Translations under genes and position numbers: made by a program
The notes under the pieces: model-generated
Seen by the model: the letters and a program-made list of their open reading frames with translations, nothing else
Databases searched by the model: none
What the model was told of the DNA's origin: nothing
Shown: piece by piece, positions 34,816-55,668 of the stretch
How the letters are laid out: every line of letters begins with the position of its first letter
Numbering within the stretch: position 1 is the stretch's first letter
NCBI GenBank assembly: GCA_021802545.1
Contig: JAJZRS010000010.1
Location: forward strand, 6,801 to 70,800
Direction: 5' to 3'
DNA length: 64,000 bases
Origin: Pseudomonadota bacterium
Lineage (GTDB): Bacteria; Pseudomonadota; Gammaproteobacteria; Burkholderiales; JABEVD01

Positions 34816-35183
34816 TTCCCAATCTCCGTGAGGGTTTCGCTGACCGTCTCGGGACGGCTCGAATGGCATTCGAAGCAGTCGATCTTGACCGCGGCATACA
34901 CGTGGCAGCCCTGGCAGAAATTACTGTTCGTGCCCAGCACGCTGTTGTTGACGCGGCTCGCATGGCAGTTCACGCACTTGATCAGGCTGTACCTGCCGAT
35001 GACGCCCTGATGCACCGTGATGGTCCGCTGCTTCTTCAACAGATCGCCGTGGTTGATCTTCATGAATTTGGGATCGTTCACGCAATGCCCCCCCTTCCCG
35101 ATATCGAGATGGGGGACCGTCACCTCGGCACTGGCCGTGCCGCAAAAGAGCGCAAACAAGGCCAGGATAGCAAGCCGCTTCAT
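34812..35183 (-). CDS. dsrJ: DsrJ, periplasmic trihaem cytochrome c
   Basis: MKRLAILALFALFCGTASA signal from the ATG at 35183. Three haem motifs: CVNCH, CQGCH, CFECH. The upstream extension of the track ORF overlaps dsrL. Confidence 0.88.
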   Translation of the reverse strand: MKRLAILALFALFCGTASAEVTVPHLDIGKGGHCVNDPKFMKINHGDLLKKQRTITVHQGVIGRYSLIKCVNCHASRVNNSVLGTNSNFCQGCHVYAAVKIDCFECHSSRPETVSETLTEIGK

Positions 35184-35185
35184 CA

Positions 35186-37132
35186 CTATTCGCCCAGCCC
35201 CATCTGGATGTAGCCGGTCGGGCAGACGTCGTGGCAGATATGGCAGCCGATGCACTTGTTGTAGTCGGTGTCGACATAGCGCCCAGTCGTCGACTGGTTC
35301 TTCTTCACCTTGAACACGGCAGTCTGCGGGCAATAGACGACGCAGTTGTCGCATTCGAAGCACAGCCCGCAGCTCATGCAGCGCTTGGCTTCGTCGACGG
35401 CCTGTGATTCGGAGAGCGCTTCGATTCTTTCCTCGAAGTTGCCGAGCGCGGTTTCCTTGTCGAGCGTGATGATATTGCGCTTGTTCCTCTCCACGAAGCC
35501 GAAATGTCCCAGGAACATGTCGTCGTGGGGGATCACATAGCGTCCCGAACGGTTGTCATAATTGTGGACGGCCACATTCATGTGATCCGTTCCCCTGATC
35601 GGCTCGTGCACTTCTTCCACATCCAGCCCCTTCTCGACCATCTTTCTCATCAGGTCGAAGGTGTGGACGTCGATCTTGGGACGCTTTTCCTGCTCCTCGC
35701 CATTGAGGAACCTGTCTATGCCGTCTGCCGCGATAGAGCCGTGGCCGATCGCCGTGGTCAAGAGGTGGGGGCGGAGGACGTCGCCGCCGGCGAAAACGCC
35801 AGCCTTGCCCTGGACCTGATAATTCTTGTCCGCAGTGATCGTTCCCCTGCCGTTGTCGAATTCTTCGAGTCCGGTGAAGTCCACTGCCTGGCCGATCGCC
35901 GAAACGATGAGATCGGCTTCGATGTCGCGCTCGCTGCCCTCTTTCTTGACGATCTCGAGCTTGCCGCCGCTCATCTTGGCTTCGCATTCCATGACTCTCA
36001 GGGCAGTTGCGCGCCCATCGGATGCCTTCACGACGCCGACGGGAACAAGGCCGCCGAGAATCGCAATGCCTTCGGCAAGCGCCTGCTCGATTTCATGCTT
36101 GTTCGCCTGCATCTTGTCGACGGGGAATACGGAAGTGAGCGTGACATCGGCGCCATGCTTGACGGAAATCTCTGCGACGTCGTGCGCCATCTGGCCTGCG
36201 ATCGCACGCTCCAGGTCTGTCGGCTTGGCGTTCTCGATATGTCCCAGGCGCCTTGCAACGGTCGCAACGTCGATCGACGTGTCGCCGCCGCCGACCACCA
36301 CGACGCGCTTGCCCACGTAGCGCAGCCTGCCGTCGTTGAACGCGGAAAGAAACGCGGTTGCGGTTACGACGTTCGGCGCATCCGAGTCTGCAACGGGAAG
36401 CGCCCTGCCCGCCTGGGCACCGAGCCCCAGGAAAATCGCATCAAATTCGGAGCGGATCTGATCGAGCGTGACGTCCTTGCCTATCTTGCAGTTCATTCTC
36501 GTCTTGACGCCCAGATCGAGAATCCGCTGGATTTCGGCGTCGAGCACGTCGCGCGGCGTGCGGAATCCGGGGATGCCGTAGCGCATCATGCCGCCGAGGA
36601 GCTCGTGATCGTCGAAAATAGTGACTTCATGCCCCTTCATGGCCAGCTGGTAGGCGCAGGAAAGGCCTCCAGGCCCGCCGCCGATGACAGCGATCTTCTT
36701 GCCCGTCGAATTTTCCGGCTTCGCGAATTTCAGGTTGTTCGCGATCGCGTACTCGCCGAGGAAGTGCTCGACCGAGTTGATGCCGACATGGTCTTCGACC
36801 TCGTTCCTGTTGCATCCGGTCTCGCAAGGCGCCGGGCACACGCGTCCCATCACGGAGGGGAAGGGATTGGCTTCAGTCAGCCTTCTCCAGGCGTATTCCT
36901 GCCAATTCATGCCTGCGGGCGGCTTCTCGATGCCTCTGACGATCTGCAGGTAGCTTCTGATGTCCTCGCCTGCCGGGCAGCTTCCCTGGCATGGCGGAGT
37001 CGACTGGATATAGGTCGGGCATTTATGGGTATAGCTTGCCTGGAATATCTGGTCGCGCCATGATTTGACCGTGTGGTCGCCATCCTTGTAGCGCCTGAAT
37101 GTGAGCTTGTCGTCCATCATGGTTTCTGACAT
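35186..37132 (-). CDS. dsrL: DsrL, NAD(P)H:acceptor oxidoreductase (GltD-like, C-terminal ferredoxin domain)
   Basis: 648-aa ORF. N-terminal FeS region, FAD/NAD motifs IAVIGGGPGGLSCA and VVVVGGGDTSIDVA, and a C-terminal 2x[4Fe-4S] domain (CMSCGLCFECDNC..CIGCHICHDVCP). Confidence 0.9.
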   Translation of the reverse strand: MSETMMDDKLTFRRYKDGDHTVKSWRDQIFQASYTHKCPTYIQSTPPCQGSCPAGEDIRSYLQIVRGIEKPPAGMNWQEYAWRRLTEANPFPSVMGRVCPAPCETGCNRNEVEDHVGINSVEHFLGEYAIANNLKFAKPENSTGKKIAVIGGGPGGLSCAYQLAMKGHEVTIFDDHELLGGMMRYGIPGFRTPRDVLDAEIQRILDLGVKTRMNCKIGKDVTLDQIRSEFDAIFLGLGAQAGRALPVADSDAPNVVTATAFLSAFNDGRLRYVGKRVVVVGGGDTSIDVATVARRLGHIENAKPTDLERAIAGQMAHDVAEISVKHGADVTLTSVFPVDKMQANKHEIEQALAEGIAILGGLVPVGVVKASDGRATALRVMECEAKMSGGKLEIVKKEGSERDIEADLIVSAIGQAVDFTGLEEFDNGRGTITADKNYQVQGKAGVFAGGDVLRPHLLTTAIGHGSIAADGIDRFLNGEEQEKRPKIDVHTFDLMRKMVEKGLDVEEVHEPIRGTDHMNVAVHNYDNRSGRYVIPHDDMFLGHFGFVERNKRNIITLDKETALGNFEERIEALSESQAVDEAKRCMSCGLCFECDNCVVYCPQTAVFKVKKNQSTTGRYVDTDYNKCIGCHICHDVCPTGYIQMGLGE

Positions 37133-37162
37133 TTCCTGCCTCCGATGTATTTTGAGTAAGAG

Positions 37163-38695
37163 CTATTTGTCGCCAAGCCTGATCGCGTTGCTCACCAGTT
37201 GGTGCACGCCGCCTATCATGCGCATGTTGAATCCGTAATAGGGAAGAACCTTGGTGAACTGCGTCTTGCATATGGCGCATATCGCCGCCATGAAGTTGAC
37301 CCCATCCTTTTCGACGACTTCCTTCAGGGCCTCCATCCTGGGCAACGCCCCTTTCACCCTGAGATCCATCAGGTCGTCCGTCAACAGGCCGCCGCCTCCG
37401 CCACAGCAGAAGGTCTTCTCCATTATCGTGGCCTCGTTCATGTCGACGAACTTGTTGGCTGCGGCCCTGATGATGTTTCTCGGGATTTCGAATTGCCCGC
37501 CCGGCATGTCGCCCATGCGCGAGGCTCTCGCCACGTTGCACGAATCGTGGAAGGTGACGACGTAATGGTCGTTCGCCTCCGGGTCGAGCGTGATCGCCTG
37601 TTTCTGGATCAGGTCCCAGGTCACTTCGCATATGTGGGATGGCTGCTTGTAACGCTGGTCGAGCTGCTTCTGGAGCTGTATCGCGAAACGGTCGTTGGGA
37701 TCGGCCCCGTCGCCGATACCTGTCAGCGTATTCCAGAAACTGTACGCGACGCGCCATGCATGCCCGCATTCTCCGACGACGATGCGCTTCACGCCGAGTT
37801 CCAGCGCCGCTTCGCGAATGCGCAATGCAATCTGACGAAGCTGGTCGTAGCTGCCGATGAAAAGACCGAAGTTGCCGCCTTCAGACGCCTTCGAAGAAAG
37901 CGTCCAGGAGATTCCTGCAGCATGGAACACCTTGGCATAACCCACCAGGCTGTCGATATGGGGTTCCGCGAAGAAATCAGCGGATGGGGTGATCAGCAGT
38001 ACTTCAGCGCCCTTCACGTCGAGCGGGAAACGGATGTCTATCCCCGTGTCCTCCTTGACATCCTCCTCGAGTCCTTCGAGCGTATCGGTCAGCGCAGGTC
38101 CCGGAAGTCCCAGGTTGTTGCCTATCTTGTGGACCTTGCCGATGATCTCGTTGGCATATTTCTGTCCGTAGCCAACCGAATCGAGAATCTCACGGGCTGC
38201 CATCGTGACTTCGGCGGTATCGATCCCGTAGGGGCAGAAAACCGAGCAGCGACGGCATTCGGAACATTGATGGTAGTAGCTGTACCATTCGTCCAGCACT
38301 TCGCGCGTCAGGTCGCGCGCACCGACGAGCTTGGGAAAAAGCTTGCCCGGGATCGTGAAATAGCGCCTGTAGACGCTTCTCAGGAGATCCTGGCGGGCGA
38401 CCGGCATGTTCTTCGGATCCTGAGTGCCGATGAAGTAATGGCATTTGTCCGAGCATGCGCCGCAATGCACGCACGCATCCAGATAGACCTTGAGGGAGCG
38501 GTATTTCTTGAGCAGTTCGCCCATCTTGGCGATCGCGCGCTCTTCCCAGTCCTCTACCAACTCTCCAGGGAAACCGAGTGCTTCCTGGATCTTGTCGCTG
38601 GCGACGAAAGGCTTCAGGCCTTCCATCGCTCCGGGCTTGATTGAGGGAATGATGGGAATGACCCGGTAGGGTGGAGCTGTAATCTCTGCAGCCAT
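37163..38695 (-). CDS. dsrK: DsrK, HdrD-like catalytic FeS subunit
   Basis: 510-aa ORF. CVHCGACSDKC and CSECRRCSVFCP ferredoxin motifs plus CCG-domain cysteines (CCGGGGG). Confidence 0.92.
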   Translation of the reverse strand: MAAEITAPPYRVIPIIPSIKPGAMEGLKPFVASDKIQEALGFPGELVEDWEERAIAKMGELLKKYRSLKVYLDACVHCGACSDKCHYFIGTQDPKNMPVARQDLLRSVYRRYFTIPGKLFPKLVGARDLTREVLDEWYSYYHQCSECRRCSVFCPYGIDTAEVTMAAREILDSVGYGQKYANEIIGKVHKIGNNLGLPGPALTDTLEGLEEDVKEDTGIDIRFPLDVKGAEVLLITPSADFFAEPHIDSLVGYAKVFHAAGISWTLSSKASEGGNFGLFIGSYDQLRQIALRIREAALELGVKRIVVGECGHAWRVAYSFWNTLTGIGDGADPNDRFAIQLQKQLDQRYKQPSHICEVTWDLIQKQAITLDPEANDHYVVTFHDSCNVARASRMGDMPGGQFEIPRNIIRAAANKFVDMNEATIMEKTFCCGGGGGLLTDDLMDLRVKGALPRMEALKEVVEKDGVNFMAAICAICKTQFTKVLPYYGFNMRMIGGVHQLVSNAIRLGDK

Positions 38696-39424
38696 TTATT
38701 TCTCCACTTCCATTTTTGCAGCCCAGGGCGCGATATGGCGCTTTTCCCTGGGATTGTCCGGCATGACGCGCGTTGGCGAGAAGAACAGTCCTGGCGCATG
38801 CAAGAGCTTGCTGAAAGGAAATATGATCATCAGGGTCGCAACCAGGGACAGATGGACGTAAAGCAGGCCATTCGTCGAGGGCAAGGGCTGCCAATCGAAA
38901 GCCATGAGGCCCAGGAAAAACGCCTTGACGCCGATGATATCGACATGATCAAGGAATTTCATCGAAAGGCCGGAAATCGCGATGAGGATCAGGAGCGCGA
39001 GCATCAGATGGTCGGAAGGGGTCGAAATGTATCTCACCCTGTCGACGAAAAGCCGCCTGCCCCAAAGTCCCAGGAGCCCCACCGCCATCACCATTCCCGC
39101 ATAGATGCCGAAGGGCTGAACCAGATCCACCCATCCCCAGACGGGCTCGGTGAAATAGCGCAGATGGCGCATCAGCACCAGCGCCAGGCCGCCATGGAAA
39201 AGCATTGCGAATCCCCATGTCCAAAGGCTGCCCTTGAACAGGCTCTCGAAGAATACGACTTCCCTGGTTATGCGCAACGCCACGCCCCCTTTTGTCGTGG
39301 GGGCCGGCGTCGTGGGAATCACCAGAGGTGCCGGCGTACGCGCATAATCATATATACGGTATCCGACACCCCCAACCAGGCACAGGGCCGCCACGTAGAA
39401 GACTACCGCAAACAAGACACTCAT
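38696..39424 (-). CDS. dsrM: DsrM, NarI-like dihaem cytochrome b membrane subunit
   Basis: 242-aa ORF with five predicted TM helices and conserved His residues, placed between dsrC and dsrK. Confidence 0.9.
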   Translation of the reverse strand: MSVLFAVVFYVAALCLVGGVGYRIYDYARTPAPLVIPTTPAPTTKGGVALRITREVVFFESLFKGSLWTWGFAMLFHGGLALVLMRHLRYFTEPVWGWVDLVQPFGIYAGMVMAVGLLGLWGRRLFVDRVRYISTPSDHLMLALLILIAISGLSMKFLDHVDIIGVKAFFLGLMAFDWQPLPSTNGLLYVHLSLVATLMIIFPFSKLLHAPGLFFSPTRVMPDNPREKRHIAPWAAKMEVEK

Positions 39425-39454
39425 GACGATTCCCTTATGCCTGCCCTGCGTCGA

Positions 39455-39790
39455 TCAGATGCAGCCTGTCGGCTTCGGAAGACCTGCGACCTTGCAAGCC
39501 TGCTTGCCGGGGCCGTAAGGGAAAAGTTCGTAAAGATACTGGCTGTTTCCCTTCTCAGGCCCGAGCTTCTTGCCGATCGCCTTGGTCAGGACGCGGACAG
39601 CGGGGGCGATCTGGAATTCGTCGTAATATTTCCTCAGAAAATCGATCACTTCCCAGTGCTGCTCGGTCATGTTCAGATTTTCGGTCTTGGCGATATAGTT
39701 GGCAACATCCATGTTCCAGTCTGCCAGATTGACGAGGTAGCCTTCCTCGTCTGTTTCATAGGATTTGCCGTTGACTTCGATTTGTGGCAT
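39455..39790 (-). CDS. dsrC: DsrC, sulfur-carrier substrate protein of DsrAB
   Basis: 111-aa ORF ending GKQACKVAGLPKPTGCI, so both conserved C-terminal-arm cysteines are present. Confidence 0.95.
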   Translation of the reverse strand: MPQIEVNGKSYETDEEGYLVNLADWNMDVANYIAKTENLNMTEQHWEVIDFLRKYYDEFQIAPAVRVLTKAIGKKLGPEKGNSQYLYELFPYGPGKQACKVAGLPKPTGCI

Positions 39791-39816
39791 TTCAATCTCC
39801 TTATATTAATAGTGGT

Positions 39817-40113
39817 TCAAAGCCAGGATTGGCAATTACTGTTGGCAACGACGAGATCGACGAAACCGTCGTAACCCACTGTCGACACGCCCTCCAAAAC
39901 GCGGTCGGCAAGTCCTCTAGCTTCGATGTCTGGCATCAGCGCGTAGACTTTGAAGCGGCTCATGGCTTCCTTGATTTTCGCCTCATAGGCATTGCCTGCC
40001 GTCGCGGCATAGATGGCATCTTCAATCAGAAGAATGTCGCCGCCGGTCGCCACGTTGAGGCAGGTGTCCAGCGTCGAACTGGACATCGGGCTTTGGTTGA
40101 TGATGTGCAGCAT
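39817..40113 (-). CDS. dsrH: DsrH, sulfur-transfer complex DsrEFH subunit
   Basis: 98-aa ORF, MLHIINQSP..GGDILLIEDAIYAA, following dsrF. Confidence 0.88.
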   Translation of the reverse strand: MLHIINQSPMSSSTLDTCLNVATGGDILLIEDAIYAATAGNAYEAKIKEAMSRFKVYALMPDIEARGLADRVLEGVSTVGYDGFVDLVVANSNCQSWL

Positions 40114-40123
40114 ATTCCCCTTC

Positions 40124-40495
40124 CTAGAAACTCAGCAGGACGTCCTGCTCATCCATAAGTGCGCCCATTTCAGCCCGAGTCAGGACAGTCACGTCGACCA
40201 GCAGGTCGTCTTCGGTCAATCCCCTTGCCTCCATGGCTTCCTTTTCGACATAAAGCTTCTCGATGTCATAGCCTTCGAGGGCACGATAGGTGGGTGAAAA
40301 ATTCTTGGTTTCGATCCCCTTGGTTTGCTGCCCTTTCTTCAACTGATAGACGCCATCGTCGAGAAAAGCCAGGGAAACGTCCTGATCGAACGCAGCCGTG
40401 ATCAGCACCACCTCAAGCGACTCCAGCGCGTAGACCGTGCCGTAGGGCGCCTTGCGGTTGACGAACATGAATTTCTTGATGCCTTCTTCGCTCAT
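40124..40495 (-). CDS. dsrF: DsrF, sulfur-transfer complex DsrEFH subunit
   Basis: MSEEGIKKFMFVNRKAPYGTVYALESLEV from the ATG at 40495 with an upstream GAGGGG SD. The track start at 40507 is a TTG. Confidence 0.87.
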   Translation of the reverse strand: MSEEGIKKFMFVNRKAPYGTVYALESLEVVLITAAFDQDVSLAFLDDGVYQLKKGQQTKGIETKNFSPTYRALEGYDIEKLYVEKEAMEARGLTEDDLLVDVTVLTRAEMGALMDEQDVLLSF

Positions 40496-40503
40496 TTTTC
40501 CCC

Positions 40504-40863
40504 TCAATCGCCGAATGTGACCAGACGGTCCGCCTGGATGCCCGCCTCGACCAACTGGCCGAGACCGGAAATCCTGAAGCCGGCAGCAAGATTCTCATCA
40601 CGGATGCCGCGCCGGAGCGCGGCTGCCACGCAAACGACCAGATCGACACCGTGTTCCTCGGCCAGCTTGCTCCAGCGGTTCACGATATTCCTGTCGTCCT
40701 GGGGAGGCTCCGTCAGTTTGGTGGCATTGTTCACGCCGTCGTGATAGAAAAAGACGCGCGAGACTTCATGCCCCTTTTCGATCGCCGCCTTGCAGAACAG
40801 GTAGGCGGAATCGCTGGCCTGATGCTGATAGGGCCCCTCGTTCACTACGATGCCGAATTTCAT
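40504..40863 (-). CDS. dsrE: DsrE, sulfur-transfer complex DsrEFH subunit (active-site Cys)
   Basis: MKFGIVVNEGPYQHQASDSAY..DLVVCVAAALRRG from the ATG at 40863 (SD GAGG 6 nt upstream). The track start at 40869 is a GTG. Confidence 0.9.
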   Translation of the reverse strand: MKFGIVVNEGPYQHQASDSAYLFCKAAIEKGHEVSRVFFYHDGVNNATKLTEPPQDDRNIVNRWSKLAEEHGVDLVVCVAAALRRGIRDENLAAGFRISGLGQLVEAGIQADRLVTFGD

Positions 40864-40870
40864 GGCCACC

Positions 40871-41947
40871 TCAGAAGCGGATGTGCGTCGAAGCGTTCAG
40901 GTTGGCGCGCGAGCCTCTCCAGTCGTCCACCAGGTACTTGGTGAAAGGCAGGTCGGTCTTTTCGAAGAAGCGCGGCCAGCCGATGCGATCGATCCAGTCC
41001 GAAAGCCTCTCCCAGGGCCTGGCGTCGTCCTTGTAGACGTGCAGGATATTCTTCACGACCTCAGCCACTTCGGTCCAGCGCGGCGGATTGTTGGGAAGAC
41101 CCGAGGCCACCATCTTCATGAAGGTCGGCTTTGCCCTCGCGTTCGAATTCTTTCCGCCCACCCAGATCGCGATCTTGGAATATTCCGGATCGTTGATCTG
41201 CATCGGGGGGCAGGGAGGATAGCACGCGCCGCAGCACACGCATTTCGTTTCGTCGACTTCCAGCGAAGGCTTGCCGTTGACGAGCGCAGGCCTGATCGCA
41301 GCGACCGGACAACGGGCGACCACGGCGGGACGCTCGCACACGTTGGCGACGAGATCGTGATTGATCTTCGGCGGCTTGGTGTGCTGGACGATGATCGCGA
41401 TGTCGGCCTGGCCACCGCAGTTGATCTCGCAGCAGGAGGTCGAAAGATGAACGCGATTGGGCATTTCCTCGCGCTTGAACTCGACGATCAGTTCGTCCAT
41501 CAAGGACTTCACCACGCCGGACGCGTCCGTTCCGGGAATGTCGCAATGCAGCCATCCCTGGGTATGGGCGATCATGGAAACGGAATTTCCCGTTCCGCCC
41601 ACGGGGAAGCCGTTCGCCTCGAGCTCGGAAATGAGCGGCGCAACCTTGGACTCGTCGGACACCATGAACTCGATGTTCGAGCGGATGGTGAAGCGGACAT
41701 GCCCTTCTGCGAACTTGTCTGCGATTTCGCAAAGCTTCCTGATCGTGTAGACGTCCATCTGGCGCTGCGTGCCTGCGCGAACCGACCAGACCTGATCCCC
41801 GCTGTAGGAAACATGGTGCAACACGCCAGGACGGGGACGATCATGGTACTTCCAGTTGCCGTAGTTCTTGAGCAGCGTGGGATGCATGAACTGCTTGTTG
41901 TCGGGAACGCCACTCTCGACAGGACGGCGCAATTGTGCTTGTGACAT
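40871..41947 (-). CDS. dsrB: Reverse-type dissimilatory sulfite reductase beta subunit
   Basis: 358-aa ORF. Sirohaem/FeS motifs (CCEINCGGQ, CVCCGACYPPCP). Follows dsrA. Confidence 0.95.
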   Translation of the reverse strand: MSQAQLRRPVESGVPDNKQFMHPTLLKNYGNWKYHDRPRPGVLHHVSYSGDQVWSVRAGTQRQMDVYTIRKLCEIADKFAEGHVRFTIRSNIEFMVSDESKVAPLISELEANGFPVGGTGNSVSMIAHTQGWLHCDIPGTDASGVVKSLMDELIVEFKREEMPNRVHLSTSCCEINCGGQADIAIIVQHTKPPKINHDLVANVCERPAVVARCPVAAIRPALVNGKPSLEVDETKCVCCGACYPPCPPMQINDPEYSKIAIWVGGKNSNARAKPTFMKMVASGLPNNPPRWTEVAEVVKNILHVYKDDARPWERLSDWIDRIGWPRFFEKTDLPFTKYLVDDWRGSRANLNASTHIRF

Positions 41948-41959
41948 ACTCTATTCTCC

Positions 41960-43255
41960 TCAGGCAGCCTGCTTCTTGGCTTTGATTTTCGCCACTTCCT
42001 CGTCCCATCCGTCAGTTCTGACATAGGGATTCATCCGCGGGTTCGATACCATGTTCGGATCGACATCGATTCCCATTGCGTCAAGGAAGTTGACCAGACC
42101 GATACGCTCGATCATCTCGCCGGTACGCTCGTGCTCGAGTGCATTCTCGGCAAAGAAATCGATGATGCGCTGACCGAGATCGACGAGCTCGTCCATGGCC
42201 TCGTCAGTATCAAGCTTCATGAAAGGAATGACCACGGTACCCATCAGGTCGCCGATCTTCAGCGTGCGCTTTCCGCCCACCAGAACCGTAGCGCCCTTGT
42301 CTTGGCCCGGGGACAGCGCGCCGGTCATGACATTGATGCAATGCATGCAGCGCACGCAGTCGTGGTTGTCGATCTCGACGGCATGGGTGTCGCTGATGGC
42401 AACGCTGGAAATATGCTCGTCTTTCTTCACATCCTTGATTTCCTTCAGCTGGAAGGCCTTGGTCGGACAGCGGGCAACGACGTCGTTGACGAGCTCGTTC
42501 ATGCCGTGCTTGGCGAACCACTTCTTGGCCAGCGCTTCGTCGGTCCTGATGTTGTCGCGCCAGGTTCCGATGACGGCCATGTCTGCACGCTGAATCGAGT
42601 TCATGCAGTCATTGGGGCAGCCGGAAAACTTGAACTTGAACTTGTAGGGCAGCGAAGGACGATGGATGTCATCGACGAAAGTGTTGAGCATCAGGCGGTG
42701 AGCCTTTGCTTCATCATAGCAGGACTGCTCGCAGCGGGCCGCGCCGACGCAGGACATGGAAGTGCGCACCGCAGGGCCCGCACCGCCGAGATCGAAACCC
42801 ATCTCGTTGAGCTCGTCGAAAGCGCCCTGGACATTGTCCGTCGTCGCACCCTGGAACATGATGTCGCCCGACTGGCCGTGGAAGGCGATCAGGCCGGAAC
42901 CGTGCCGCTCCCAAATGTCGCACATCTTGCGCAGCACATCGGTGTTGTAATGCATGCCTGCAGGAGGCTGGACGCGCAACGTGTGGAATTCCGCAGCGTC
43001 CTTATAGATGGGTTCTCCGTTCTCGTCCTTGAGTTCGGTAAAACGCGGAATGATGCCGCCGCCGTAACCGAAGACACCGACCGTGCCCCCCTTCCAGTAC
43101 CCTTTCTTGGTCTTGTATGACGTTTCGAGCTGACCCAGCAGGTCAACCGCCATGTCATTGTCTTTCGCCAAACGCTTCAGTCCGGTCACGAAGCTGGGCC
43201 AGGGACCTTTCTCGAGTTCATCGAGATTCGGCGTATCATGCAGTTTCTTAGCCAT
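41960..43255 (-). CDS. dsrA: Reverse-type dissimilatory sulfite reductase alpha subunit
   Basis: 431-aa ORF, MAKKLHDTPNLDELEKGPWPSFV. Cys motifs SMSCVGAARCE, FSGCPNDC and CVRCMHC. Co-occurrence with dsrEFH indicates the oxidative type. Confidence 0.96.
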   Translation of the reverse strand: MAKKLHDTPNLDELEKGPWPSFVTGLKRLAKDNDMAVDLLGQLETSYKTKKGYWKGGTVGVFGYGGGIIPRFTELKDENGEPIYKDAAEFHTLRVQPPAGMHYNTDVLRKMCDIWERHGSGLIAFHGQSGDIMFQGATTDNVQGAFDELNEMGFDLGGAGPAVRTSMSCVGAARCEQSCYDEAKAHRLMLNTFVDDIHRPSLPYKFKFKFSGCPNDCMNSIQRADMAVIGTWRDNIRTDEALAKKWFAKHGMNELVNDVVARCPTKAFQLKEIKDVKKDEHISSVAISDTHAVEIDNHDCVRCMHCINVMTGALSPGQDKGATVLVGGKRTLKIGDLMGTVVIPFMKLDTDEAMDELVDLGQRIIDFFAENALEHERTGEMIERIGLVNFLDAMGIDVDPNMVSNPRMNPYVRTDGWDEEVAKIKAKKQAA

Positions 43256-43382
43256 GAATCCTCCTACACATAAAAAGTTATGGAAAGGTCCTTTCGAACC
43301 GTGGCGATCTTGGCCGCCTGTCTATCTAGACGCTCCGCCAAATGAGGTATATTAGACAAGCCTGATGGTCATGTGTAAACTA

Positions 43383-43452
43383 CCCTTACGGGTTATAACC
43401 CAACCCCCCCCGATTGGCTATAGACTCCAGAGCCTTGCATCGCGCTCAATAT
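43383..43452 (+). promoter_or_regulatory. Conserved tripartite upstream module, copy A (in front of the 43501 operon)
   Basis: CCCTTAC-GGGTTAT (43390-96), N19, GGCTATAGAC (43416-25), N21, CAATAT (43447-52). Same boxes, spacing and orientation as copies B and C. GGGTTATAACCC (43390-43401) is a perfect 12-bp palindrome. Confidence 0.6.
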
Positions 43453-43500
43453 GGATTAATATTTATAGCAGATTTTCCCGATCTTCGCAGGCTTTGAACC

Positions 43501-43716
43501 ATGACGCAAATCAATATGCTGGAGAAATTCAATATACCCCTTGGCGGGCAAGAAATCGAGTTGCAGCAGATCGATTATGCCGAGGGCGGCATGAGTCTTT
43601 TGCGCATACGCATCAGGGAAGGCAAGCGCTTCACCATTTTCGACATTGACCCCGTGACAGCGAAACAGTGGTCGGACGCGATGGGAAAATGGGCGGATTC
43701 GGTCAATGGAAAGTGA
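43501..43716 (+). CDS. Hypothetical 71-aa protein
   Basis: ORF MTQINMLEKFNIPLGGQEIELQQIDYAEGGMSLLRIRIREGKRFTIFDIDPVTAKQWSDAMGKWADSVNGK. Overlaps the next gene by 11 nt. No clear SD and no family recognised. Confidence 0.5.
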   Translation: MTQINMLEKFNIPLGGQEIELQQIDYAEGGMSLLRIRIREGKRFTIFDIDPVTAKQWSDAMGKWADSVNGK

Positions 43717-44299
43717 GATGACGGATATCGTATTTGATATCAAGGGCGATCTCGTCCCCCTTGGCTATCCTTTCCTGCTCTGGGACGAAATCACGAAGAC
43801 GCTGCCCTGGCTGAATGAAGAGGCGCATGCCGGGATACTCCCGCTGAAGGGCGCCGCGAGCAATGAAGGCATGCTGCTTCCGAAACGGACGAAGCTCGCA
43901 ATCAGGATTCCGGAAAAGTTCGCGCAGCAGGCTTTGCCGCTTTCCGGGAAAAGACTGGATATAGAAGGTCACTTCCTCGAGGTCGGCCAAGGAAAAAAAC
44001 GGGCGATCGAGGCCTATCCCACCCTGAAAGCCCATATCGTGGAAAGCGAGAAGATTGAAGCTTCCTTCATGGAAGACGTGGAGCGGGAGCTGGGAGAACT
44101 CGGCATCCTATGCAAATTGATCTGCGGCAAGCGGCAAAGCCTGAAATACGGGAATGAAACCATTTCGGGCTACGGCCTCGTGGTTCACGACCTCAAGCCG
44201 GAAGCCTCGATCAGGCTGCAGCAGGTTGGGCTCGGCAATTTCCGTCGTTTTGGTTGCGGCATTTTCGTTCCGCACAAGACGATAGCCGGATTGGATTGA
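43706..44299 (+). CDS. Orphan Cas6/Cmx6-like RAMP protein
   Basis: 197-aa ORF. C-terminal GLGNFRRFGCG (nt 44228-44260) fits the Cas6 glycine-rich loop G-h-G-x5-G-h-G exactly. The size and the N-terminal DIVFDIKG..LP..Y...LW..I...LPWL pattern recall subtype I-MYXAN Cas6/Cmx6. Confidence 0.6.
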   Translation: MESEMTDIVFDIKGDLVPLGYPFLLWDEITKTLPWLNEEAHAGILPLKGAASNEGMLLPKRTKLAIRIPEKFAQQALPLSGKRLDIEGHFLEVGQGKKRAIEAYPTLKAHIVESEKIEASFMEDVERELGELGILCKLICGKRQSLKYGNETISGYGLVVHDLKPEASIRLQQVGLGNFRRFGCGIFVPHKTIAGLD

Positions 44300-44320
44300 A
44301 GCATTTTTTAGGAGGAAAAG

Positions 44321-44650
44321 ATGACGTATCATATCAACGGTGTCGACTTCGAAACGGACGGTGACGGTTATTTGCTGGAGCCCGATTACAGCAACGAGGC
44401 GGTCGAAGTGATTGCTGCAGCAGAAGGCATCACGCTCACCCCAGAGCACTGGAAGATCATCGACTACATGCGCGAGGAATATCGCGAAAACGGCCATACG
44501 CCCAACTTCAGGAACATGGTGAAGGGCGTCCAGGAATTCTGGCCCGAAGCGGACAGCAAGGCGCTCTATGACCTCTTCCCCATGGGACCGGCAAAGCAAG
44601 GCGCGAAAATCGCCGGCCTGCCCCAACCCTACGGCAAGGGCGGTTACTGA
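44321..44650 (+). CDS. DsrC/TusE-family protein lacking both C-terminal cysteines
   Basis: 109-aa ORF that aligns with dsrC at 39455-39790 (TPEHWKIIDYMREEY vs TEQHWEVIDFLRKYY). It ends AKQGAKIAGLPQPYGKGGY where DsrC has GKQACKVAGLPKPTGCI. Strong SD AGGAGG. Confidence 0.85.
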   Translation: MTYHINGVDFETDGDGYLLEPDYSNEAVEVIAAAEGITLTPEHWKIIDYMREEYRENGHTPNFRNMVKGVQEFWPEADSKALYDLFPMGPAKQGAKIAGLPQPYGKGGY

Positions 44651-44660
44651 GGATATCGTG

Positions 44661-45140
44661 ATGGAAAAATTGATTGCCAATGTCGTACTGAACATGAAGG
44701 GCCTCACCTGCCCCGGCCCGCTTCTCGGCGCAAAAAGGATGGTCGACGACCTCGAGAGCGGCCAGATCCTGCTCCTGATCTCCGACTGCCCCGGTACCCA
44801 GGACGACCTGTTTTCCTGGACCAAGCAGACCGACAACCAGGTTCTGCATACCGAAAAGCAGCCTGACGGCGGCATGGGCTATTACATCATGAAGGGCAAG
44901 GGGCACGAGTACAAAGCCAACGTGCTGCTCGACATCAGGGGCGTGCTATGCCCGGGCCCCATCGTCGAAGCCAAGAAACTCCTGAACGGCATGCAGTCCG
45001 GTGAAATCCTGAAGCTGACCAGCAACTGCCCCGGAATCAGGTCAGACATCGAAGGCTGGGCCAAGGCAACCGGGATGGACATCCTGGAATCGGTCGAAGT
45101 CGGTCCCGGCGAGTACGACTTTTTCATCCGGAAAGGCTGA
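44661..45140 (+). CDS. Tandem TusA-TusA (SirA-like) sulfur-carrier fusion protein
   Basis: 159 aa from the ATG at 44661. Two TusA modules each carry the Cys motif: NMKGLTCPGPLLGAKR and DIRGVLCPGPIVEAKK. Confidence 0.85.
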   Translation: MEKLIANVVLNMKGLTCPGPLLGAKRMVDDLESGQILLLISDCPGTQDDLFSWTKQTDNQVLHTEKQPDGGMGYYIMKGKGHEYKANVLLDIRGVLCPGPIVEAKKLLNGMQSGEILKLTSNCPGIRSDIEGWAKATGMDILESVEVGPGEYDFFIRKG

Positions 45141-45733
45141 TGCGGGTCAAGAGCCGCTGGTTCAAGGCCGACCGGGAAAAAACGCCCAAGGAAATCGCGG
45201 GCGCGGCGTCTTTCATTCTTTGGAAAATCGCCCAGAATGCGCTCAAGAACATGCGCGGCGCGGATTACGAGATCGAAGCGGGGCCGCGCTATTTCGATTA
45301 CCTGAGGGAATTCCTGATCTTCCTGATCCTGGTTGCTGACAGGATCGCCTTTGAAAAGATGGAGAACGAATCGAGGGCGTCCTTTACCCTCGAGCTCGCC
45401 TTGAGGGTCGCCGACAATTTGGCGGAAAACCAGAGCGCCCTCCTCGGCCTGCCTTTTCCCGATTCGAAAAACGCCTTCATCGACAAGTTCAACGAGCGGT
45501 CGGATGTCTACGCGCAGTGCGGCTTCGACGAGAACGGCCCGGATTTTGCCTTCATGCGCTATCTCGGGCTTTGCCTGCTCGAATACTGCGATGAACGGGA
45601 CAGAAGCTGGGTCGTCGATCGCGTCATGCAAATCGATGCGATCGAAGCGGTCGCTACTGTCAAGCGCGCCATGAAGGGACTGCTCGACACCGAGCCGGAA
45701 CATCGTCTGGGCTCCGGTATCGGTCCGGACTGA
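45140..45733 (+). CDS. Hypothetical protein
   Basis: 197-aa ORF whose ATG overlaps the preceding TGA by 1 nt. No family recognised. Confidence 0.55.
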   Translation: MRVKSRWFKADREKTPKEIAGAASFILWKIAQNALKNMRGADYEIEAGPRYFDYLREFLIFLILVADRIAFEKMENESRASFTLELALRVADNLAENQSALLGLPFPDSKNAFIDKFNERSDVYAQCGFDENGPDFAFMRYLGLCLLEYCDERDRSWVVDRVMQIDAIEAVATVKRAMKGLLDTEPEHRLGSGIGPD

Positions 45734-45734
45734 A

Positions 45735-46544
45735 ATGGATTATCCATCCTTCAGGAATAGAAAGTTTCTTGACGCGCCGATTTCTGCCGATGCGCTCATC
45801 GTCGAGGTCAATGATCCGGCCTCATTGACCCGTTCCGAATTATCTGCCATGTCCGAACGGATCGGAAAATGCAACATGGCGATCTACAAAAGCAGGATTG
45901 CCCACCCCGACATGAAGGCTGTCGGGCGCCAGTACGGCCTGGAAAACCTGGATGCCAACTGGCTCGCCGGCGAAGACGGCATTTCCGAAATCAAGATCTC
46001 GGAATCCGGGAAGGGATACATTCCGTATACCAACAAGCCGATCAAGTGGCACACCGACGGCTACTACAATCCGCCAGAGCGCAAAATCCGCGCAATGCTT
46101 CTGCATTGTGCCCAGGATGCCACTGAAGGCGGGGAGAACAGGCTGATGGACCACGAGCTCCTGTATTGCCTCCTGATGGATCAAAATCCAGACCTTGTGC
46201 GCGCCTTGTCACAAGTTGACGCGATGCTCATCCCCGAACGTCAGGATGAGAACGGCATTGCAAGAGCGGCCGAATCCGGACCGGTGTTTTCAAGCGACGG
46301 TGGGTTTCTGCACATGCGCTATACGGCGCGGACCCGATCGATTGCCTGGAAGCAGGATGAAGCCACGCGGGCCGCAGTCTCCGCAATAGAGACCATCCTT
46401 TCATCCCCTTCTCCTTACATGTACACAATAAAGCTGGAGCCCGGCATGGGCATCGTCTGCAACAACGTGCTGCATGACCGCTCGGCTTTCACAGGCAACG
46501 CAAGGTTGCTTTACCGGGCACGCTATTACGACCGCATCAAATAA
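45735..46544 (+). CDS. TauD/TfdA-family Fe(II)/2-oxoglutarate dioxygenase-like protein
   Basis: 269-aa ORF. The HxD in KWHTDGYY, a distal His in NNVLHDRSAF and Arg in LLYRARY fit the facial-triad layout of the family. Confidence 0.7.
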   Translation: MDYPSFRNRKFLDAPISADALIVEVNDPASLTRSELSAMSERIGKCNMAIYKSRIAHPDMKAVGRQYGLENLDANWLAGEDGISEIKISESGKGYIPYTNKPIKWHTDGYYNPPERKIRAMLLHCAQDATEGGENRLMDHELLYCLLMDQNPDLVRALSQVDAMLIPERQDENGIARAAESGPVFSSDGGFLHMRYTARTRSIAWKQDEATRAAVSAIETILSSPSPYMYTIKLEPGMGIVCNNVLHDRSAFTGNARLLYRARYYDRIK

Positions 46545-46546
46545 AA

Positions 46547-46572
46547 GCCCCTCGCCTTTTCAGGCGAGGGGC
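46547..46572. terminator. Hairpin between convergent genes (A-run upstream, so a better terminator for the minus-strand fadL-like gene)
   Basis: GCCCCTCGCC-TTTTCA-GGCGAGGGGC, a 10-bp stem. It is preceded by AATAAAA on the plus strand. Confidence 0.6.
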
Positions 46573-46598
46573 AAAGGGTGTTACAGGTATCTCTGAAC

Positions 46599-47876
46599 TT
46601 ACCAGCCGTAGGAAATGCCGAGCGAATCCTCGGAAAGGGTATTGTTCGCCAGTCCGCCGCCCATGCCTGCAGGCGGGAACCCGGGGGAAATTGAAACATT
46701 GTTTATGCCATTCACGGTGCTGCTGAATGCGTGCATGTAGAACACCGTCACCTCGGATTTGTTCGCCAGTTTCCAGGTCGCGCCGAGGGTCACGTTGTCC
46801 TTCACGACGCCGGGAGCCAAAATGTTGAACAGCGTCTCGGTGGAAGGATAGGGCACGTTGTTGTGTGTCCATCCTGCTCTCACGGTCAGGTTTGAATCGT
46901 ACTGATGGGAGACGCCCAGCTTGTAGACAGTCAGGTTGCCCCAGCCAAAACCTGCGCCCGCGCTTGCACCCAAGGCGCCGGTTGCGCCCAGTCCCAAATT
47001 CGAAATTGGATCAGCTATTGCAGCCACATCACCGTACATGATGCGCTGGATGTCGAATGCGACGGTCGTAGCGGGAGTAGCCTTCACCGAGATGCCCACG
47101 CCGTAGGTCGCAGGAATGTCGAACGAGCCCTGCTGGGCAAAAAGACCGCTGTACTTGCTGAGCTTGCCCATCTTGGTCTTGGTCTGGTAGGTCGCGCCCA
47201 GCGTGACGGTGGGAGAAACCTGACCCATCCAGCCGATGTGCAGTCCGTAGCCGGTGTCGGAATCGGTGCCGGGATTGTTGAATCCATTGGCCGCGGCGGA
47301 AGAAAATCCTGCAAAGGGCTGTATGCCCTTGGCCGAGAAGCGCTGATAGGCGAGGTTCAGCGCAACGCCGATGGAATTGCTTGCATTGAGCTTCTTCGAC
47401 CAGGTCGGCGCAATGAAGAGCTGCTCGAGGTTCACCCCGGCATTGCCAGTCGCACCAAAGCGGGCGTAGGGGTTAGTTGCGTAGTCGGTGTTCATCCCGC
47501 CGTTGCCGTATATGGAGACACCGAGAGAGGAATCCGGCCCCATCATCTTGTTGTAGCCGAAATTGGGGATGAAGAAATTCTGCTTGTCGTTGCCGTCGTA
47601 GGTCGCATTCGCCCCGAACGCATTGCCGATGATCGAAGAACTCCGGCTCGGCCTGAACCATTCGAGGCCGAAATCGATCCTGTCGCCGACCATCACCATG
47701 CCTGCCGGGTTGGTCGCTGCAGCCAGAGCGTCCTGCGGGAGTGCGATCCCCACTCCGCCCATGCCTTCGGACTTCGCGCCATAGCCGTGTGAAAAATAGC
47801 CATTCGTGGCGTAGGCTGCAGGCGCGACAAGGCCGCCAGCAATCAACATCGAAACAAGCAATTTCCTCTTTATCAT
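46599..47876 (-). CDS. FadL/TodX-family outer-membrane transporter for hydrophobic compounds
   Basis: 425-aa ORF. Signal peptide ..VAPAAYA, N-terminal hatch motif NGYFSHGYGAKSEGMGGVG, C-terminal ..GISYGW. Confidence 0.83.
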   Translation of the reverse strand: MIKRKLLVSMLIAGGLVAPAAYATNGYFSHGYGAKSEGMGGVGIALPQDALAAATNPAGMVMVGDRIDFGLEWFRPSRSSSIIGNAFGANATYDGNDKQNFFIPNFGYNKMMGPDSSLGVSIYGNGGMNTDYATNPYARFGATGNAGVNLEQLFIAPTWSKKLNASNSIGVALNLAYQRFSAKGIQPFAGFSSAAANGFNNPGTDSDTGYGLHIGWMGQVSPTVTLGATYQTKTKMGKLSKYSGLFAQQGSFDIPATYGVGISVKATPATTVAFDIQRIMYGDVAAIADPISNLGLGATGALGASAGAGFGWGNLTVYKLGVSHQYDSNLTVRAGWTHNNVPYPSTETLFNILAPGVVKDNVTLGATWKLANKSEVTVFYMHAFSSTVNGINNVSISPGFPPAGMGGGLANNTLSEDSLGISYGW

Positions 47877-47914
47877 GGTGTTGCCCCTCTCTCCTATTAA
47901 TTAGTGGTACAGCT

Positions 47915-48382
47915 TCAAACAAACAGACAGATATCGGTTTCCCCGGCGAATTCCATGAAGGTCGCGGCGCCGCCGAATTCGATCCCTTCGATGAAATCGC
48001 TCTTGTCGAATTCGAAAAGGTCTACGGTCATCTGGCAGGCAACGAACTTGACGTCCGCCTCCAGGCACATGCTCCTCAGCTCCTCGAGGGATGCAACGCC
48101 CTTCTTCTTCAGCTTGTCCTTCATCATCATCGTCGCCATGGATTCCATGCCAGGCAGCATCTGCACGAAAACAGGCATGGGAACAGGCATGGGCATCGCC
48201 GGGTTGGCCAGCGGACTGATCTTGACGTCGGACAGATCCTTTTTCAGGAGCTGAAGTCCGTAGAAGGTGAAGAAAATCTGAACATCGTACCCCAGTGCAG
48301 CTGCAGTGGATCCCAGGATGAACGGGGGATAGGCCATGTCGAGCGTGCCCTTTGTGGCGATGATCGCCATTTTTTTTGTCAT
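47915..48382 (-). CDS. DsrE-family sulfurtransferase-like protein (DsrE3-like)
   Basis: 155-aa ORF, MAIIATKGTLDMAYPPFILGSTAAALG..VKFVACQMTVDLF, with a conserved Cys as in DsrE2/DsrE3-type proteins. Sits 10 nt downstream of tusA. Confidence 0.78.
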   Translation of the reverse strand: MTKKMAIIATKGTLDMAYPPFILGSTAAALGYDVQIFFTFYGLQLLKKDLSDVKISPLANPAMPMPVPMPVFVQMLPGMESMATMMMKDKLKKKGVASLEELRSMCLEADVKFVACQMTVDLFEFDKSDFIEGIEFGGAATFMEFAGETDICLFV

Positions 48383-48392
48383 GTCAGATCCC

Positions 48393-48620
48393 TCACTTCT
48401 TCTTCATGAAGAAGACATATTCGCCGTTTGACTCGCTCTGCTCAAGCAGTTCGTTGCCCGTCTGCTTGGCGAAGGCCTGCATATCCTTGACGGAACCGCA
48501 ATCGGTCGAGACGACCTTGAGCACCTGACCGGGATTCATGTCGGCCAGCGATTTTTTCGTCTTCAGGATGGGAAGCGGACAGTTGAGGCCGCGTGCGTCG
48601 AGTTCTTTCTGAAATTCCAT
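48393..48620 (-). CDS. tusA: TusA-family sulfur carrier
   Basis: MEFQKELDARGLNCPLPILKTKKSLADM from the ATG at 48620 (75 aa), with the canonical Cys-Pro-x-Pro motif. Confidence 0.87.
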   Translation of the reverse strand: MEFQKELDARGLNCPLPILKTKKSLADMNPGQVLKVVSTDCGSVKDMQAFAKQTGNELLEQSESNGEYVFFMKKK

Positions 48621-48674
48621 GTTGGTCTCCGTAAAAAACGTTTCACTTGCTTGAAACACATTCTCAATATAATG

Positions 48675-48743
48675 CTATTAGGCGGAATTTGTGATTCAAC
48701 CGTCTATAGCCGAAATGGGTCATGCCAGGATAACCCTCATGGG
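48675..48743 (-). promoter_or_regulatory. Conserved tripartite upstream module, copy B (in front of tusA-dsrE3-like)
   Basis: Plus-strand reading: CTATTA (48675-80), N21, GTCTATAGCC (48702-11), N18, ATAACCC (48730-36), TCATGGG. This is the reverse complement of copy A, i.e. the same orientation relative to the downstream gene. Confidence 0.6.
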
Positions 48744-48754
48744 TTACGTGGTTA

Positions 48755-49546
48755 TCATCGCACGACCAGAACCGGCATTTCCGACCGCTCCACCACGCGC
48801 CTGGCTGTCCCGAGAGAGCGGACATCCGACATGCCGACGACGGTCAGATCGGCATCTATGGGCGAGGCCAGAATTTCGTCACAGGGCTGTCCAATCCTCA
48901 CCAGAGTTTTCGCGGAAACACCGGATTCCTCGGCGATTTTCTTGGCATCCGAAACGATGCGTTCGGCATCCATCCTTTTTTCCTCGTTCGCTGCAACGCA
49001 GAGCAGATGGAGCGGCAGACCGCACTCGGATGCAATCTTGGCGGAAATGATTGCAACCCGTTCCGTTTTCGAAGAGCCGTCGACTGAAGCCAGAATTCCC
49101 TTCGACCACATCCGGCAGGCGCGAGGCACCATCAGCACCGAACAGGGTGAATTCGACACGACTTGGCTCACCATTTCTCCGATGAGGAGCTTCGCAATAA
49201 AACCACGCCTGCCGCGGCGCCTGATGACGATGAGGTCGGATTTTCTCTCGAGCGCCTCCCTGACGATCTCTTCAGCTGCGACCCCGCGCCTTGCCCTGAT
49301 GGCAAGCGACACCCCTGCATCCTTCGCAATTCTTTCGAGATCGGCCATTCTCGATGCGGTTTCCTGCTCGGCACGCCCGGCAAGGGTCTGTGCGGCAGCC
49401 TCGAATTCGGGATTGCTGGATACGGGCACGACGACGGAAAGGGGAAGCCCGCACGCTTTCGCCATTTCGAGCGCAACGCGCTCGGAGCCCGAGTCGAACT
49501 CGGTATGCTCTGTGGCGAGGAGAATGTTCCCGAAGGGATGGCTCAT
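48755..49546 (-). CDS. Tandem universal stress protein (UspA family)
   Basis: 263-aa ORF with two USP domains (NILLATEHTEFS.., LIVIRRRGRRG, VLMVP, PVLVV). Confidence 0.83.
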   Translation of the reverse strand: MSHPFGNILLATEHTEFDSGSERVALEMAKACGLPLSVVVPVSSNPEFEAAAQTLAGRAEQETASRMADLERIAKDAGVSLAIRARRGVAAEEIVREALERKSDLIVIRRRGRRGFIAKLLIGEMVSQVVSNSPCSVLMVPRACRMWSKGILASVDGSSKTERVAIISAKIASECGLPLHLLCVAANEEKRMDAERIVSDAKKIAEESGVSAKTLVRIGQPCDEILASPIDADLTVVGMSDVRSLGTARRVVERSEMPVLVVR

Positions 49547-49547
49547 G

Positions 49548-49964
49548 TCAATGCCTCGATATCATGCCCGATGCAGCCAGAACGAGTATGGCGATTTCGA
49601 GCGCGCATATGGCGAAATAGACCCAGTCTCGACGCTTCGCATAGATGGGCATGACCGCGAAGATGCAGAAGATCGAGCAGCCCGAAAGGATTGCGATCCC
49701 CAGAAAGCTCGCGAGATCGCCATTTCCAAGCATGGTGATCCAGTCCCATCCCTTGGGCATGCCCGTCACCTTCAGGTATTCCGGAGCTGGAAGGCTCCAG
49801 ACCTGGGGCAATTTCGCGAGCGGGATCCTGGGAGGCAGGATGTTGAACACGTAGGCCACGAAAGTGGCGATCAGCATCAGGAAACCTGCGAGCGTGCTCC
49901 AGTGCAGCCATGCGGCATAGCGCAGCTGCTCGGTGTCGAACCGTTTGGAATCATTCATGTCCAT
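49548..49964 (-). CDS. DUF1634-like membrane protein (usual partner of TauE/SafE)
   Basis: 138-aa ORF with three to four TM segments. Overlaps the tauE-like stop by 10 nt. Confidence 0.65.
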   Translation of the reverse strand: MDMNDSKRFDTEQLRYAAWLHWSTLAGFLMLIATFVAYVFNILPPRIPLAKLPQVWSLPAPEYLKVTGMPKGWDWITMLGNGDLASFLGIAILSGCSIFCIFAVMPIYAKRRDWVYFAICALEIAILVLAASGMISRH

Positions 49965-50875: not shown

Positions 50876-50877
50876 GG

Positions 50878-51855: not shown

Positions 51856-51859
51856 ACTG

Positions 51860-55661: not shown

Positions 55662-55668
55662 CGTTCAA

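Follow-up and report, generated by a model that had tools for sequence, protein, structure and literature searches.

Three sulfur-oxidation operons in a stretch of DNA from a Pseudomonadota bacterium (Burkholderiales; JABEVD01) share an upstream module of about 75 bp, and each copy of this module is probably a regulator-dependent promoter of a sulfur-oxidation regulon, with the NarL-type response regulator encoded beside one of the copies as its predicted binder. The stretch (assembly GCA_021802545.1, contig JAJZRS010000010.1, positions 6,801–70,800 of the forward strand) is 64,000 nt long and is called here, in its entirety, the window. Dozens of related iron/sulfur oxidisers have conserved copies of the module, which are associated exclusively with sulfur genes and linked to the same kinase/regulator gene pair. 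The module most likely defines a sulfur-oxidation regulon that has not been described before, and its predicted mechanism would be of a familiar kind.

The pattern GGGTTAT-N{17,20}-GGYTATAGAC has three matches in the window, at 43390–43425 on the plus strand and at 48702–48736 and 55569–55603 on the minus strand, and none in 100 dinucleotide-preserving shuffles of the same DNA. Its second element, the 10-mer GGYTATAGAC, occurs in three exact copies, all of them at these sites; when one mismatch is allowed, two more sites appear (35329 and 57014), giving five in total against 1.8 expected. The three modules, copies A, B and C, are all oriented in the sense of the gene that follows them. Copy A (43378–43456, plus strand) precedes an operon that begins with a DUF6967 gene, copy B (48671–48748, minus strand) precedes tusA-dsrE2, and copy C (55537–55614, minus strand) precedes soeABC and is divergent from a histidine kinase gene. 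Against a profile hidden Markov model (nhmmer) of the module, the copies score 46.7 bits (E 1.5e-12), 52.4 bits (E 2.4e-14) and 54.7 bits (E 4.7e-15), respectively. In each of them a last box follows the 10-mer after 21 nt, at a distance from the start codon of 48 nt for the DUF6967 gene (ATG at 43501), 54 nt for tusA (ATG at 48620) and 62 nt for soeA (ATG at 55479). Aligned with one another, the three copies have two more elements in common: the first spacer contains ACCC, and the last box is closely preceded by AT-N2-CGC. A preliminary description of this DNA had given the coordinates and sequences of the three copies, a shared pattern with fixed spacing and orientation, and last boxes lying 48–62 nt before the start codons, all of which was found to be correct on re-reading.

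The same description listed a 7-mer, a 10-mer and a last box. In an alignment of 67 instances of the module the 7-mer and the 10-mer are not free-standing; each turns out to be the right-hand half of a 16-bp inverted repeat, O1 and O2, respectively. The distal repeat, O1, reads (A)TAACCC-N4-GGGTTA(T) and is strongly symmetric, while the proximal one, O2, reads nnACCC-N4-nGGYTA and has a weaker, poorly conserved left half. O1 is a perfect palindrome in copy B (TAACCCATGAGGGTTA, 48731–48746, no mismatches) and carries two mismatches to TAACCC-N4-GGGTTA in copy A (CTACCCTTACGGGTTA, 43380–43395); in copy C a palindrome search places it at 55598–55613 (TCCCCCATGCGGGTTA, minus-strand reading). O2 lies at 43405–43420 in copy A (CCCCCCCGATTGGCTA), where its left half falls within a run of eight C and is read in register with the profile alignment, at 48707–48722 in copy B (TGACCCATTTCGGCTA) and, from the palindrome search, at 55574–55589 in copy C (TCACCCGATACGGTTA, minus-strand reading). 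The centres of the two repeats are 25 bp apart in copy A, 24 bp apart in copies B and C, and 22 bp apart in the Gallionella-type tusA promoters. Palindromes of the form TAACCC-N4-GGGTTA with at most two mismatches number five in the window against 0.52 expected, and four of these are O1 of copies A, B and C and O2 of copy C. The fifth, AAACCCGAGAGGGTTT at 24610–24625, lies inside the RNase R gene (22533–24722) and is probably due to chance.

Directly abutting O2 is a –35-like hexamer, T(A/G)GACN, whose GAC is almost invariant among the 67 aligned modules; the TAGAC end of the 10-mer looks like a –35 hexamer, and it is followed after 19–20 variable bases by a –10-like box. In copy A the putative –35 element is TAGACT (43421–43426, plus strand) and the –10-like box, 20 nt after it, is CAATAT (43447–43452, plus strand). 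The core of copy B, on the minus strand (48706–48675), consists of TAGACG (48706–48701), a 20-nt spacer and TAATAG (48680–48675), and that of copy C, also on the minus strand (55573–55542), of TAGACA (55573–55568), a 20-nt spacer and TAATAG (55547–55542). The proposal of the preliminary description that the last box is a –10 hexamer gains weight from the Gallionella-type relatives, in which the aligned position is a perfect TATAAT (CCTATAATG) at a fixed distance of 19–21 nt from GAC. CAATAT in copy A has the A at position 2 and the T at position 6 that characterize such a box, and TAATAG in copies B and C is without the final T. At the canonical 17-bp position upstream of the –10 box the hexamer is not TTGACA-like, and no –35 element is found at 16–18 bp. 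Immediately 5' of the –10 box, modules of the window type carry the block ATT(G/C)CGC(C/T) (43438–43446, 48681–48689 and 55548–55556), the Gallionella-type counterpart of which is ATTATTCC-like. The spacers vary across the alignment, in contrast to the conserved half-sites, GAC and –10 box.

The distribution of the module was followed in 80 related loci of 20 kb around DsrE2 homologues, drawn from Gallionellaceae, Sideroxydans, Ferrovaceae and some metagenome-assembled genomes of Burkholderiales; together with the window they make up 1.23 Mb of scanned DNA. The profile has 96 matches in this set, and all 71 strong ones (E<1e-5) point in the sense of a sulfur gene that begins no more than about 180 nt further on: 49 precede tusA, nine the DUF6967 operon, five soeA (plus one a split soeA), three soxYZ, two tauE and two a sqr-like gene. 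Weaker matches are found before soeA, tusA, tauE, soxY and one rhodanese gene. The preliminary description had proposed a matrix scan for further sites and conservation in orthologous intergenic regions as tests; within the window and the 80 loci the module came through both, being kept in many genomes and always in sense orientation. Its suggestion of an activator-dependent promoter and a common regulon agrees with this conservation, orientation and restriction to sulfur genes. Inside the module the distances are fixed, whereas 56 to 99 nt, a spread of about 45 nt, separate the –10 box from the start codon of tusA, a pattern more in keeping with a promoter than with a leader RNA. A symmetrised matrix of O1 alone finds 70 further sites, mostly in the dsrA/DUF6967, soeA/sat and soxYZ promoter regions; a few sites scoring at least 10 lie inside other genes or away from any sulfur gene in the fetched DNA. 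The Gallionella-type soeA promoters of four loci (L006, L011, L019 and L020) carry a variant of the module, TACCCC-TTAC-GGGTTAT, CTCATCACGGCTATGG, 20 nt and CATACT, together with a third O1-like site about 24 bp further upstream that faces the divergent sat-aprBA cluster.

The pair of genes divergent from soeA in the window encodes a soluble sensor histidine kinase (55669–56793, plus strand; GAF-HisKA_3-HATPase_c by Pfam) and a NarL-family response regulator with a receiver domain and a GerE/LuxR helix-turn-helix domain (56790–57464, plus strand; NCBIfam NarL, E 4e-65). The kinase has no membrane segment, and its GAF domain contains four cysteines, C75, C78, C95 and C108, in the arrangement CGxCG...C...C, which are kept in 100, 100, 100 and 93%, respectively, of 120 homologues; this motif suggests an Fe-S or a thiol/persulfide sensor. 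Some sources label the kinase homologues 'NarX', an apparent misnomer. The best match of the regulator in the PDB is E. coli NarL (E 4.6e-48). In NarL the base-contacting residues are Lys188, Val189 and Lys192 (PMC10853779), two of which are changed here (V189Q and K192R), the recognition helix being TVKQHVRH in place of TVKVHVKH. The helix TVKQHVRH is kept in nearly all regulator orthologues found beside modules, and two have TVKLHVRH.

The kinase/regulator pair diverges from a module in all 22 fetched loci that extend far enough upstream. About 19 of these loci are distinct, since L085/L086, L087/L088 and L058/L059 are near-duplicate pairs, and the two pair-bearing loci that show no module extend just 172 and 303 bp upstream. 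The neighbour across the module is soeA, tauE, tusA, a rhodanese gene or a Metallophos_2-qmoAB-hdrCB-like operon. The 22 include six contexts fetched independently after a protein search for kinase homologues (about 50–57% identity), and these have a full-strength module (30–55 bits) just upstream of the kinase gene and pointing away from it, in most cases towards a Metallophos_2-qmoAB-hdrCB-like operon. In L087–L090 (about 1500–7750) the operon behind the module encodes Metallophos_2, a pair of flavoproteins resembling HdrA/QmoA/QmoB, and proteins similar to HdrC and to HdrB (CCG), probably an adenosine-5'-phosphosulfate-reductase-linked complex of the Qmo/Hdr type. Among the annotated genes of the window from dsrN (31487) to about 62.1 kb no other regulator gene was seen. 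Of the two candidates of the preliminary description, nothing was found to favour the Cys-less DsrC-like protein encoded behind copy A, and the adjacent NarL-type regulator, backed by its linkage to the module and by the geometry of the sites, is the most likely binder.

On this basis a mechanism can be proposed. If transcription starts 7 nt past the –10 box, O2 would be centred near –46.5 and O1 near –70.5 or –71.5. The GAF kinase would phosphorylate the NarL-type regulator, dimers of the phosphorylated regulator would fill O1 and O2, and the proximal dimer, in the manner of NarL at the yeaR and ogt promoters of E. coli, would recruit RNA polymerase to a promoter that is predicted to be intrinsically poor because its –35/–10 spacer is too long and its –10 box weak; the combination of the over-long spacer with TAATAG would make it dependent on an activator. 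O1-A and O1-C, the latter some 62 bp ahead of the start predicted for the kinase, may in addition drive dsrAB and autoregulate the kinase/regulator operon. A sigma-70-like promoter of the kinase gene, TTGCAA-N16-TATAAT (55634–55661, plus strand), is suggested by consensus match only, and would put the centre of O1-C near –62.5.

Several observations sit uneasily with a regulator-dependent promoter bound by the NarL-type protein. The –10 boxes of copies B and C lack the usual final T, and the distance between the –35-like and –10 boxes, 19–20 bp, is outside the usual 16–18 bp. Between lineages the centres of O1 and O2 are 22 to 25 bp apart, which is loose for a strict cooperativity on one face of the helix. 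O1 has the geometry of a NarL operator, two 7-bp elements inverted and 2 bp apart within 16 bp, but its half-site, TAACCCn, does not agree with the heptamer consensus TACYYMT, as it has A for C at position 3 and no conservation at position 7, and the regulator has the two substitutions in the recognition helix mentioned above. In two Ferrovaceae loci, L063 (10085–10153) and L065 (15075–15143), O1 and O2 both precede the DUF6967 gene, but its start lies about 22 nt after GAC and occupies the usual position of the –10 box, for which no room is left. Finally, in all these organisms the transcript start and the binding of the regulator are predictions from sequence.

The co-localisation of pair and module may also be read in another way: the module would be a real promoter/operator of a sulfur regulon bound by a different factor encoded elsewhere, and the kinase/regulator operon would be a mere target of that factor, either as a member of the regulon or as a syntenic passenger. 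The regulator is tied to the module only by co-localisation and site geometry, most Gallionella-type loci with a tusA module show no kinase or regulator gene within 10 kb, and in L084 a LysR-type gene is found at a distance of 3.4 kb. Nevertheless, pair and module occur together in every one of the 22 loci, although the neighbouring operon is of at least five different kinds, modules have no other regulator gene as a recurrent neighbour, a 16-bp inverted repeat with TAACC half-sites is the kind of target that a NarL-family dimer binds (PMC10853779), and the recognition helix is conserved together with the half-site. A different factor is thus considered unlikely, if not negligibly so.

It is also conceivable that the NarL-type regulator binds as predicted and mainly represses, or acts dually, by occluding the –35-like hexamer or by looping between O1 and O2, with derepression when sulfur is available. 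O2 abuts or overlaps the expected contact of sigma region 4, the known regulators of sulfur oxidation SoxR and sHdrR are repressors (PMC10451225, PMC12423496), and NarL itself represses some promoters (PMC7419079). The position of the sites, upstream of the core promoter and not over the –10 box or the start, speaks for activation instead, as do a core promoter apparently too poor to fire unaided (19–20 bp spacer; TAATAG) and a layout that resembles the NarL-activated yeaR and ogt promoters. Repression as the main function is therefore regarded as improbable.

Far less credit can be given to the idea that transcription runs through the module and makes it a cis-regulatory leader RNA, with hairpins formed by the palindromes. 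O1 of copy B can form a 7-bp hairpin, and a weak sigma-70-like sequence, TAGACA-17-TAAACT, is located immediately upstream of copy A. Yet a scan of positions 40000–58000 of the window against Rfam gave no match at E<=1, and folding of the three copies with their leaders gave no stable common fold, each copy folding no better than its shuffles (z –1.39, –0.50 and +0.07) and into a different structure. The left half of O2 is poorly conserved, and TATAAT is kept downstream of the boxes at a fixed distance while the distance to the start codon varies by the 45 nt or so noted above. That the module is a dispersed repeat or a mobile-element relic that plays no part in regulation can practically be dismissed: there are three copies within 12 kb, but the boxes alone are conserved and not the spacers, the copies of different genera sit at orthologous positions in the same sense orientation, and matches occur only at sulfur-gene promoters.

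Other promoter classes were considered and set aside. A MerR-type promoter would fit the spacer length, but the palindromes are upstream of the –35-like hexamer and not in the spacer, and no MerR gene is nearby. The recognition-binding and activation-binding sites (RBS/ABS) of LysR-type promoters have a similar two-site layout, but the window has no adjacent LysR gene, and none recurs in the fetched loci, the one in L084 being the only case. As read from the sequences, only copy C (TGGGGCGTCGATTGC) approaches the sigma-54 pattern TGGCAC-N5-TTGC, since in copies A and B, as in the relatives, GG is missing at the required distance; moreover, NarL-type regulators do not have the AAA+ domain that sigma-54 requires. 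A promoter for an extracytoplasmic function (ECF) sigma factor was likewise rejected, given the anatomy of the module and the absence of matching genes.

Copy A occupies the region between the DUF6967 gene and dsrA, the first gene of the dsr operon (dsrABEFHCMKL...N, about 31487–43255, minus strand). The preliminary description stated that it points away from dsrA, which is true of the full module; O1-A, however, probably also serves dsrA. On the dsrA strand O1-A (43395–43380) is directly abutted by TTTACA (43379–43374), which is followed after 19 nt by TAATAT (43354–43349), the same geometry that O2 and the –35 and –10 boxes have on the other strand, and this candidate dsrA promoter (43379–43349, minus strand) keeps both of its hexamers, with a varying spacer, in four close relatives (L030, L040, L041 and L064). 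A sigma-70 consensus scan around copy A returned a single match, 9/12 on the plus strand and overlapping O1; it is the complement of the candidate dsrA promoter. In 19 Gallionella-type loci the dsrA/DUF6967 intergenic region contains two O1-like palindromes 23 bp apart, aimed at dsrA and followed about 23 nt later by CGTAnnAT, in the orientation opposite to that of copy A in the window; an example is the pair ACTACCCATAAGGGTTAT and ATAGCCGCTAAGGGTGAT in L017 (11547–11620). The control region between dsrA and the DUF6967 gene therefore looks bidirectional, with an orientation that is reversed between clades.

The operon behind copy A (43501–46544, plus strand) encodes the DUF6967 protein, a Cas6/Cmx6-like protein, the Cys-less DsrC-like protein, a TusA-TusA fusion, an unknown protein of 197 amino acids and a TauD-like dioxygenase. 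The Cas6/Cmx6-like protein is above the curated type I-MYXAN cutoff (145.5 bits against 98.85), and no CRISPR context is present; the DsrC-like protein has no Cys and ends in GKGGY. The position of this operon beside dsrAB is syntenic in more than 40 loci, and a literature search found no paper that mentions DUF6967. Copy B is followed on the minus strand by tusA (48393–48620) and dsrE2 (47915–48382), which form the operon 47915–48620, with a FadL-like gene next on the same strand (gene block 46599–48620). The operon behind copy C (48755–55479, minus strand) consists of soeA, soeB, soeC, tauE, a gene for an unknown protein of 122 amino acids and usp.

Taken as a whole, these features invite a broader reading, in which a dedicated two-component system, made of the soluble Cys-GAF kinase and the NarL-type regulator, would serve Gallionellaceae, Sideroxydans, Ferrovaceae and some Burkholderiales as the master switch that turns on their cytoplasmic sulfur oxidation. 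It would control rDsr, TusA/DsrE2, SoeABC, TauE, SoxYZ, Sqr and the Qmo/Hdr-like proteins by way of a bidirectional two-site module that is inverted between clades at dsrA/DUF6967, and the inversion would give the full promoter either to dsrAB or to the operon of the DUF6967, Cas6-like and DsrC-like proteins. This joint claim is put forward tentatively, as one about as open to doubt as to acceptance and leaning slightly to the former. It touches a subject of some importance. How chemolithotrophs sense reduced sulfur and switch on rDsr, Soe and TusA is largely unknown, and the Gallionellaceae connect the iron cycle with the sulfur cycle in wetlands and groundwater. For these organisms the module supplies a concrete operator sequence together with a candidate regulator and a candidate sensor. 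It also predicts membership of the regulon from sequence alone, and in this way brings in little-understood genes, those of the operon for the DUF6967, Cas6/Cmx6-like and Cys-less DsrC-like proteins and those of a Metallophos_2-qmoAB-hdrCB-like operon.

As regulators of sulfur oxidation, facultative Alphaproteobacteria and Cupriavidus are so far known to have ArsR-type repressors, Acidithiobacillus to have OmpR-type and sigma-54-type systems, and Bacillus to have NreBC (PMC10451225, PMC12423496, PMC5093147, PMC9918477). A literature search found no published description of the module or of the kinase/regulator pair, and no sulfur-oxidation regulator described for the Gallionellaceae. In Sideroxydans lithotrophicus ES-1 thiosulfate induces dsr and sox genes (PMC8788666), which fits an inducible regulon; a transcriptome paper on this strain yielded nothing on tusA, the DUF6967 operon or the kinase/regulator pair.

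Among known systems, the NarX/NarL system of E. coli, with its ogt and yeaR-yoaG promoters, offers the closest solved relative of the regulator and a similar operator, since NarL sites are 16-bp inverted repeats in 7-2-7 arrangement (PMC7419079, PMC10853779). The natural NarL site of yeaR, TAACCAATAAATGGTA, begins with TAACC, as the half-site of the module does; it is centred at –43.5, just upstream of the –35 element, and the NarL dimer bound there recruits polymerase through the alpha C-terminal domain (PMC10853779). The ogt promoter needs two NarL sites, one at –44.5 that abuts the –35 element and one at –77.5, and a site at –67.5 is functional too (PMC7419079). The module resembles both promoters in a proximal repeat that abuts a –35-like element, and ogt in a second repeat further upstream. 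It differs in other respects: the half-site is TAACCC and not TACYYMT, the two sites are 22–25 bp apart and not 33, and the core spacer is 19–20 bp long. In addition, the kinase, with four conserved Cys in its GAF domain, is soluble and not a membrane nitrate sensor, the recognition helix has V189Q and K192R, and the regulon is one of sulfur oxidation and not of nitrate respiration. Strictly speaking, then, the operator of the module is no NarL site.

With regard to function, the nearest parallel is NreBC of Bacillus licheniformis, a NarL-family two-component system that activates the sulfur-oxidation genes sqr-pdo on a reduced sulfur signal, its phosphorylated regulator binding a site in the promoter region (PMC9918477), as is predicted for the regulator of the window. 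NreB, in contrast, senses by a PAS and not a GAF domain, and the system belongs to a Gram-positive heterotroph, has a single local target and works beside a CsoR-type repressor. The DosS/DosT-DosR system of Mycobacterium tuberculosis has the same combination of a soluble GAF-HisKA_3 kinase and a NarL-family regulator, and activates many promoters through a GC-rich palindrome; according to the summary in PMC9918477, a response of DosS to H2S has been reported. The GAF domain of DosS binds haem, whereas the kinase of the window has the CGxCG...C...C motif; when the two kinases were compared, the ATPase domain alone matched and no match to the DosS GAF domain was obtained, and regulon and operator sequence differ as well. 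Finally, SoxR and sHdrR of Hyphomicrobium denitrificans and Cupriavidus pinatubonensis resemble the present system in that they control sox, tusA/dsrE-type and other such sulfur-oxidation genes according to sulfur availability (PMC10451225, PMC12423496, PMC13122954). No ArsR gene is found near the modules in the window, and while SoxR and sHdrR are one-component repressors of the ArsR family, the system described here is predicted to be a two-component activator.

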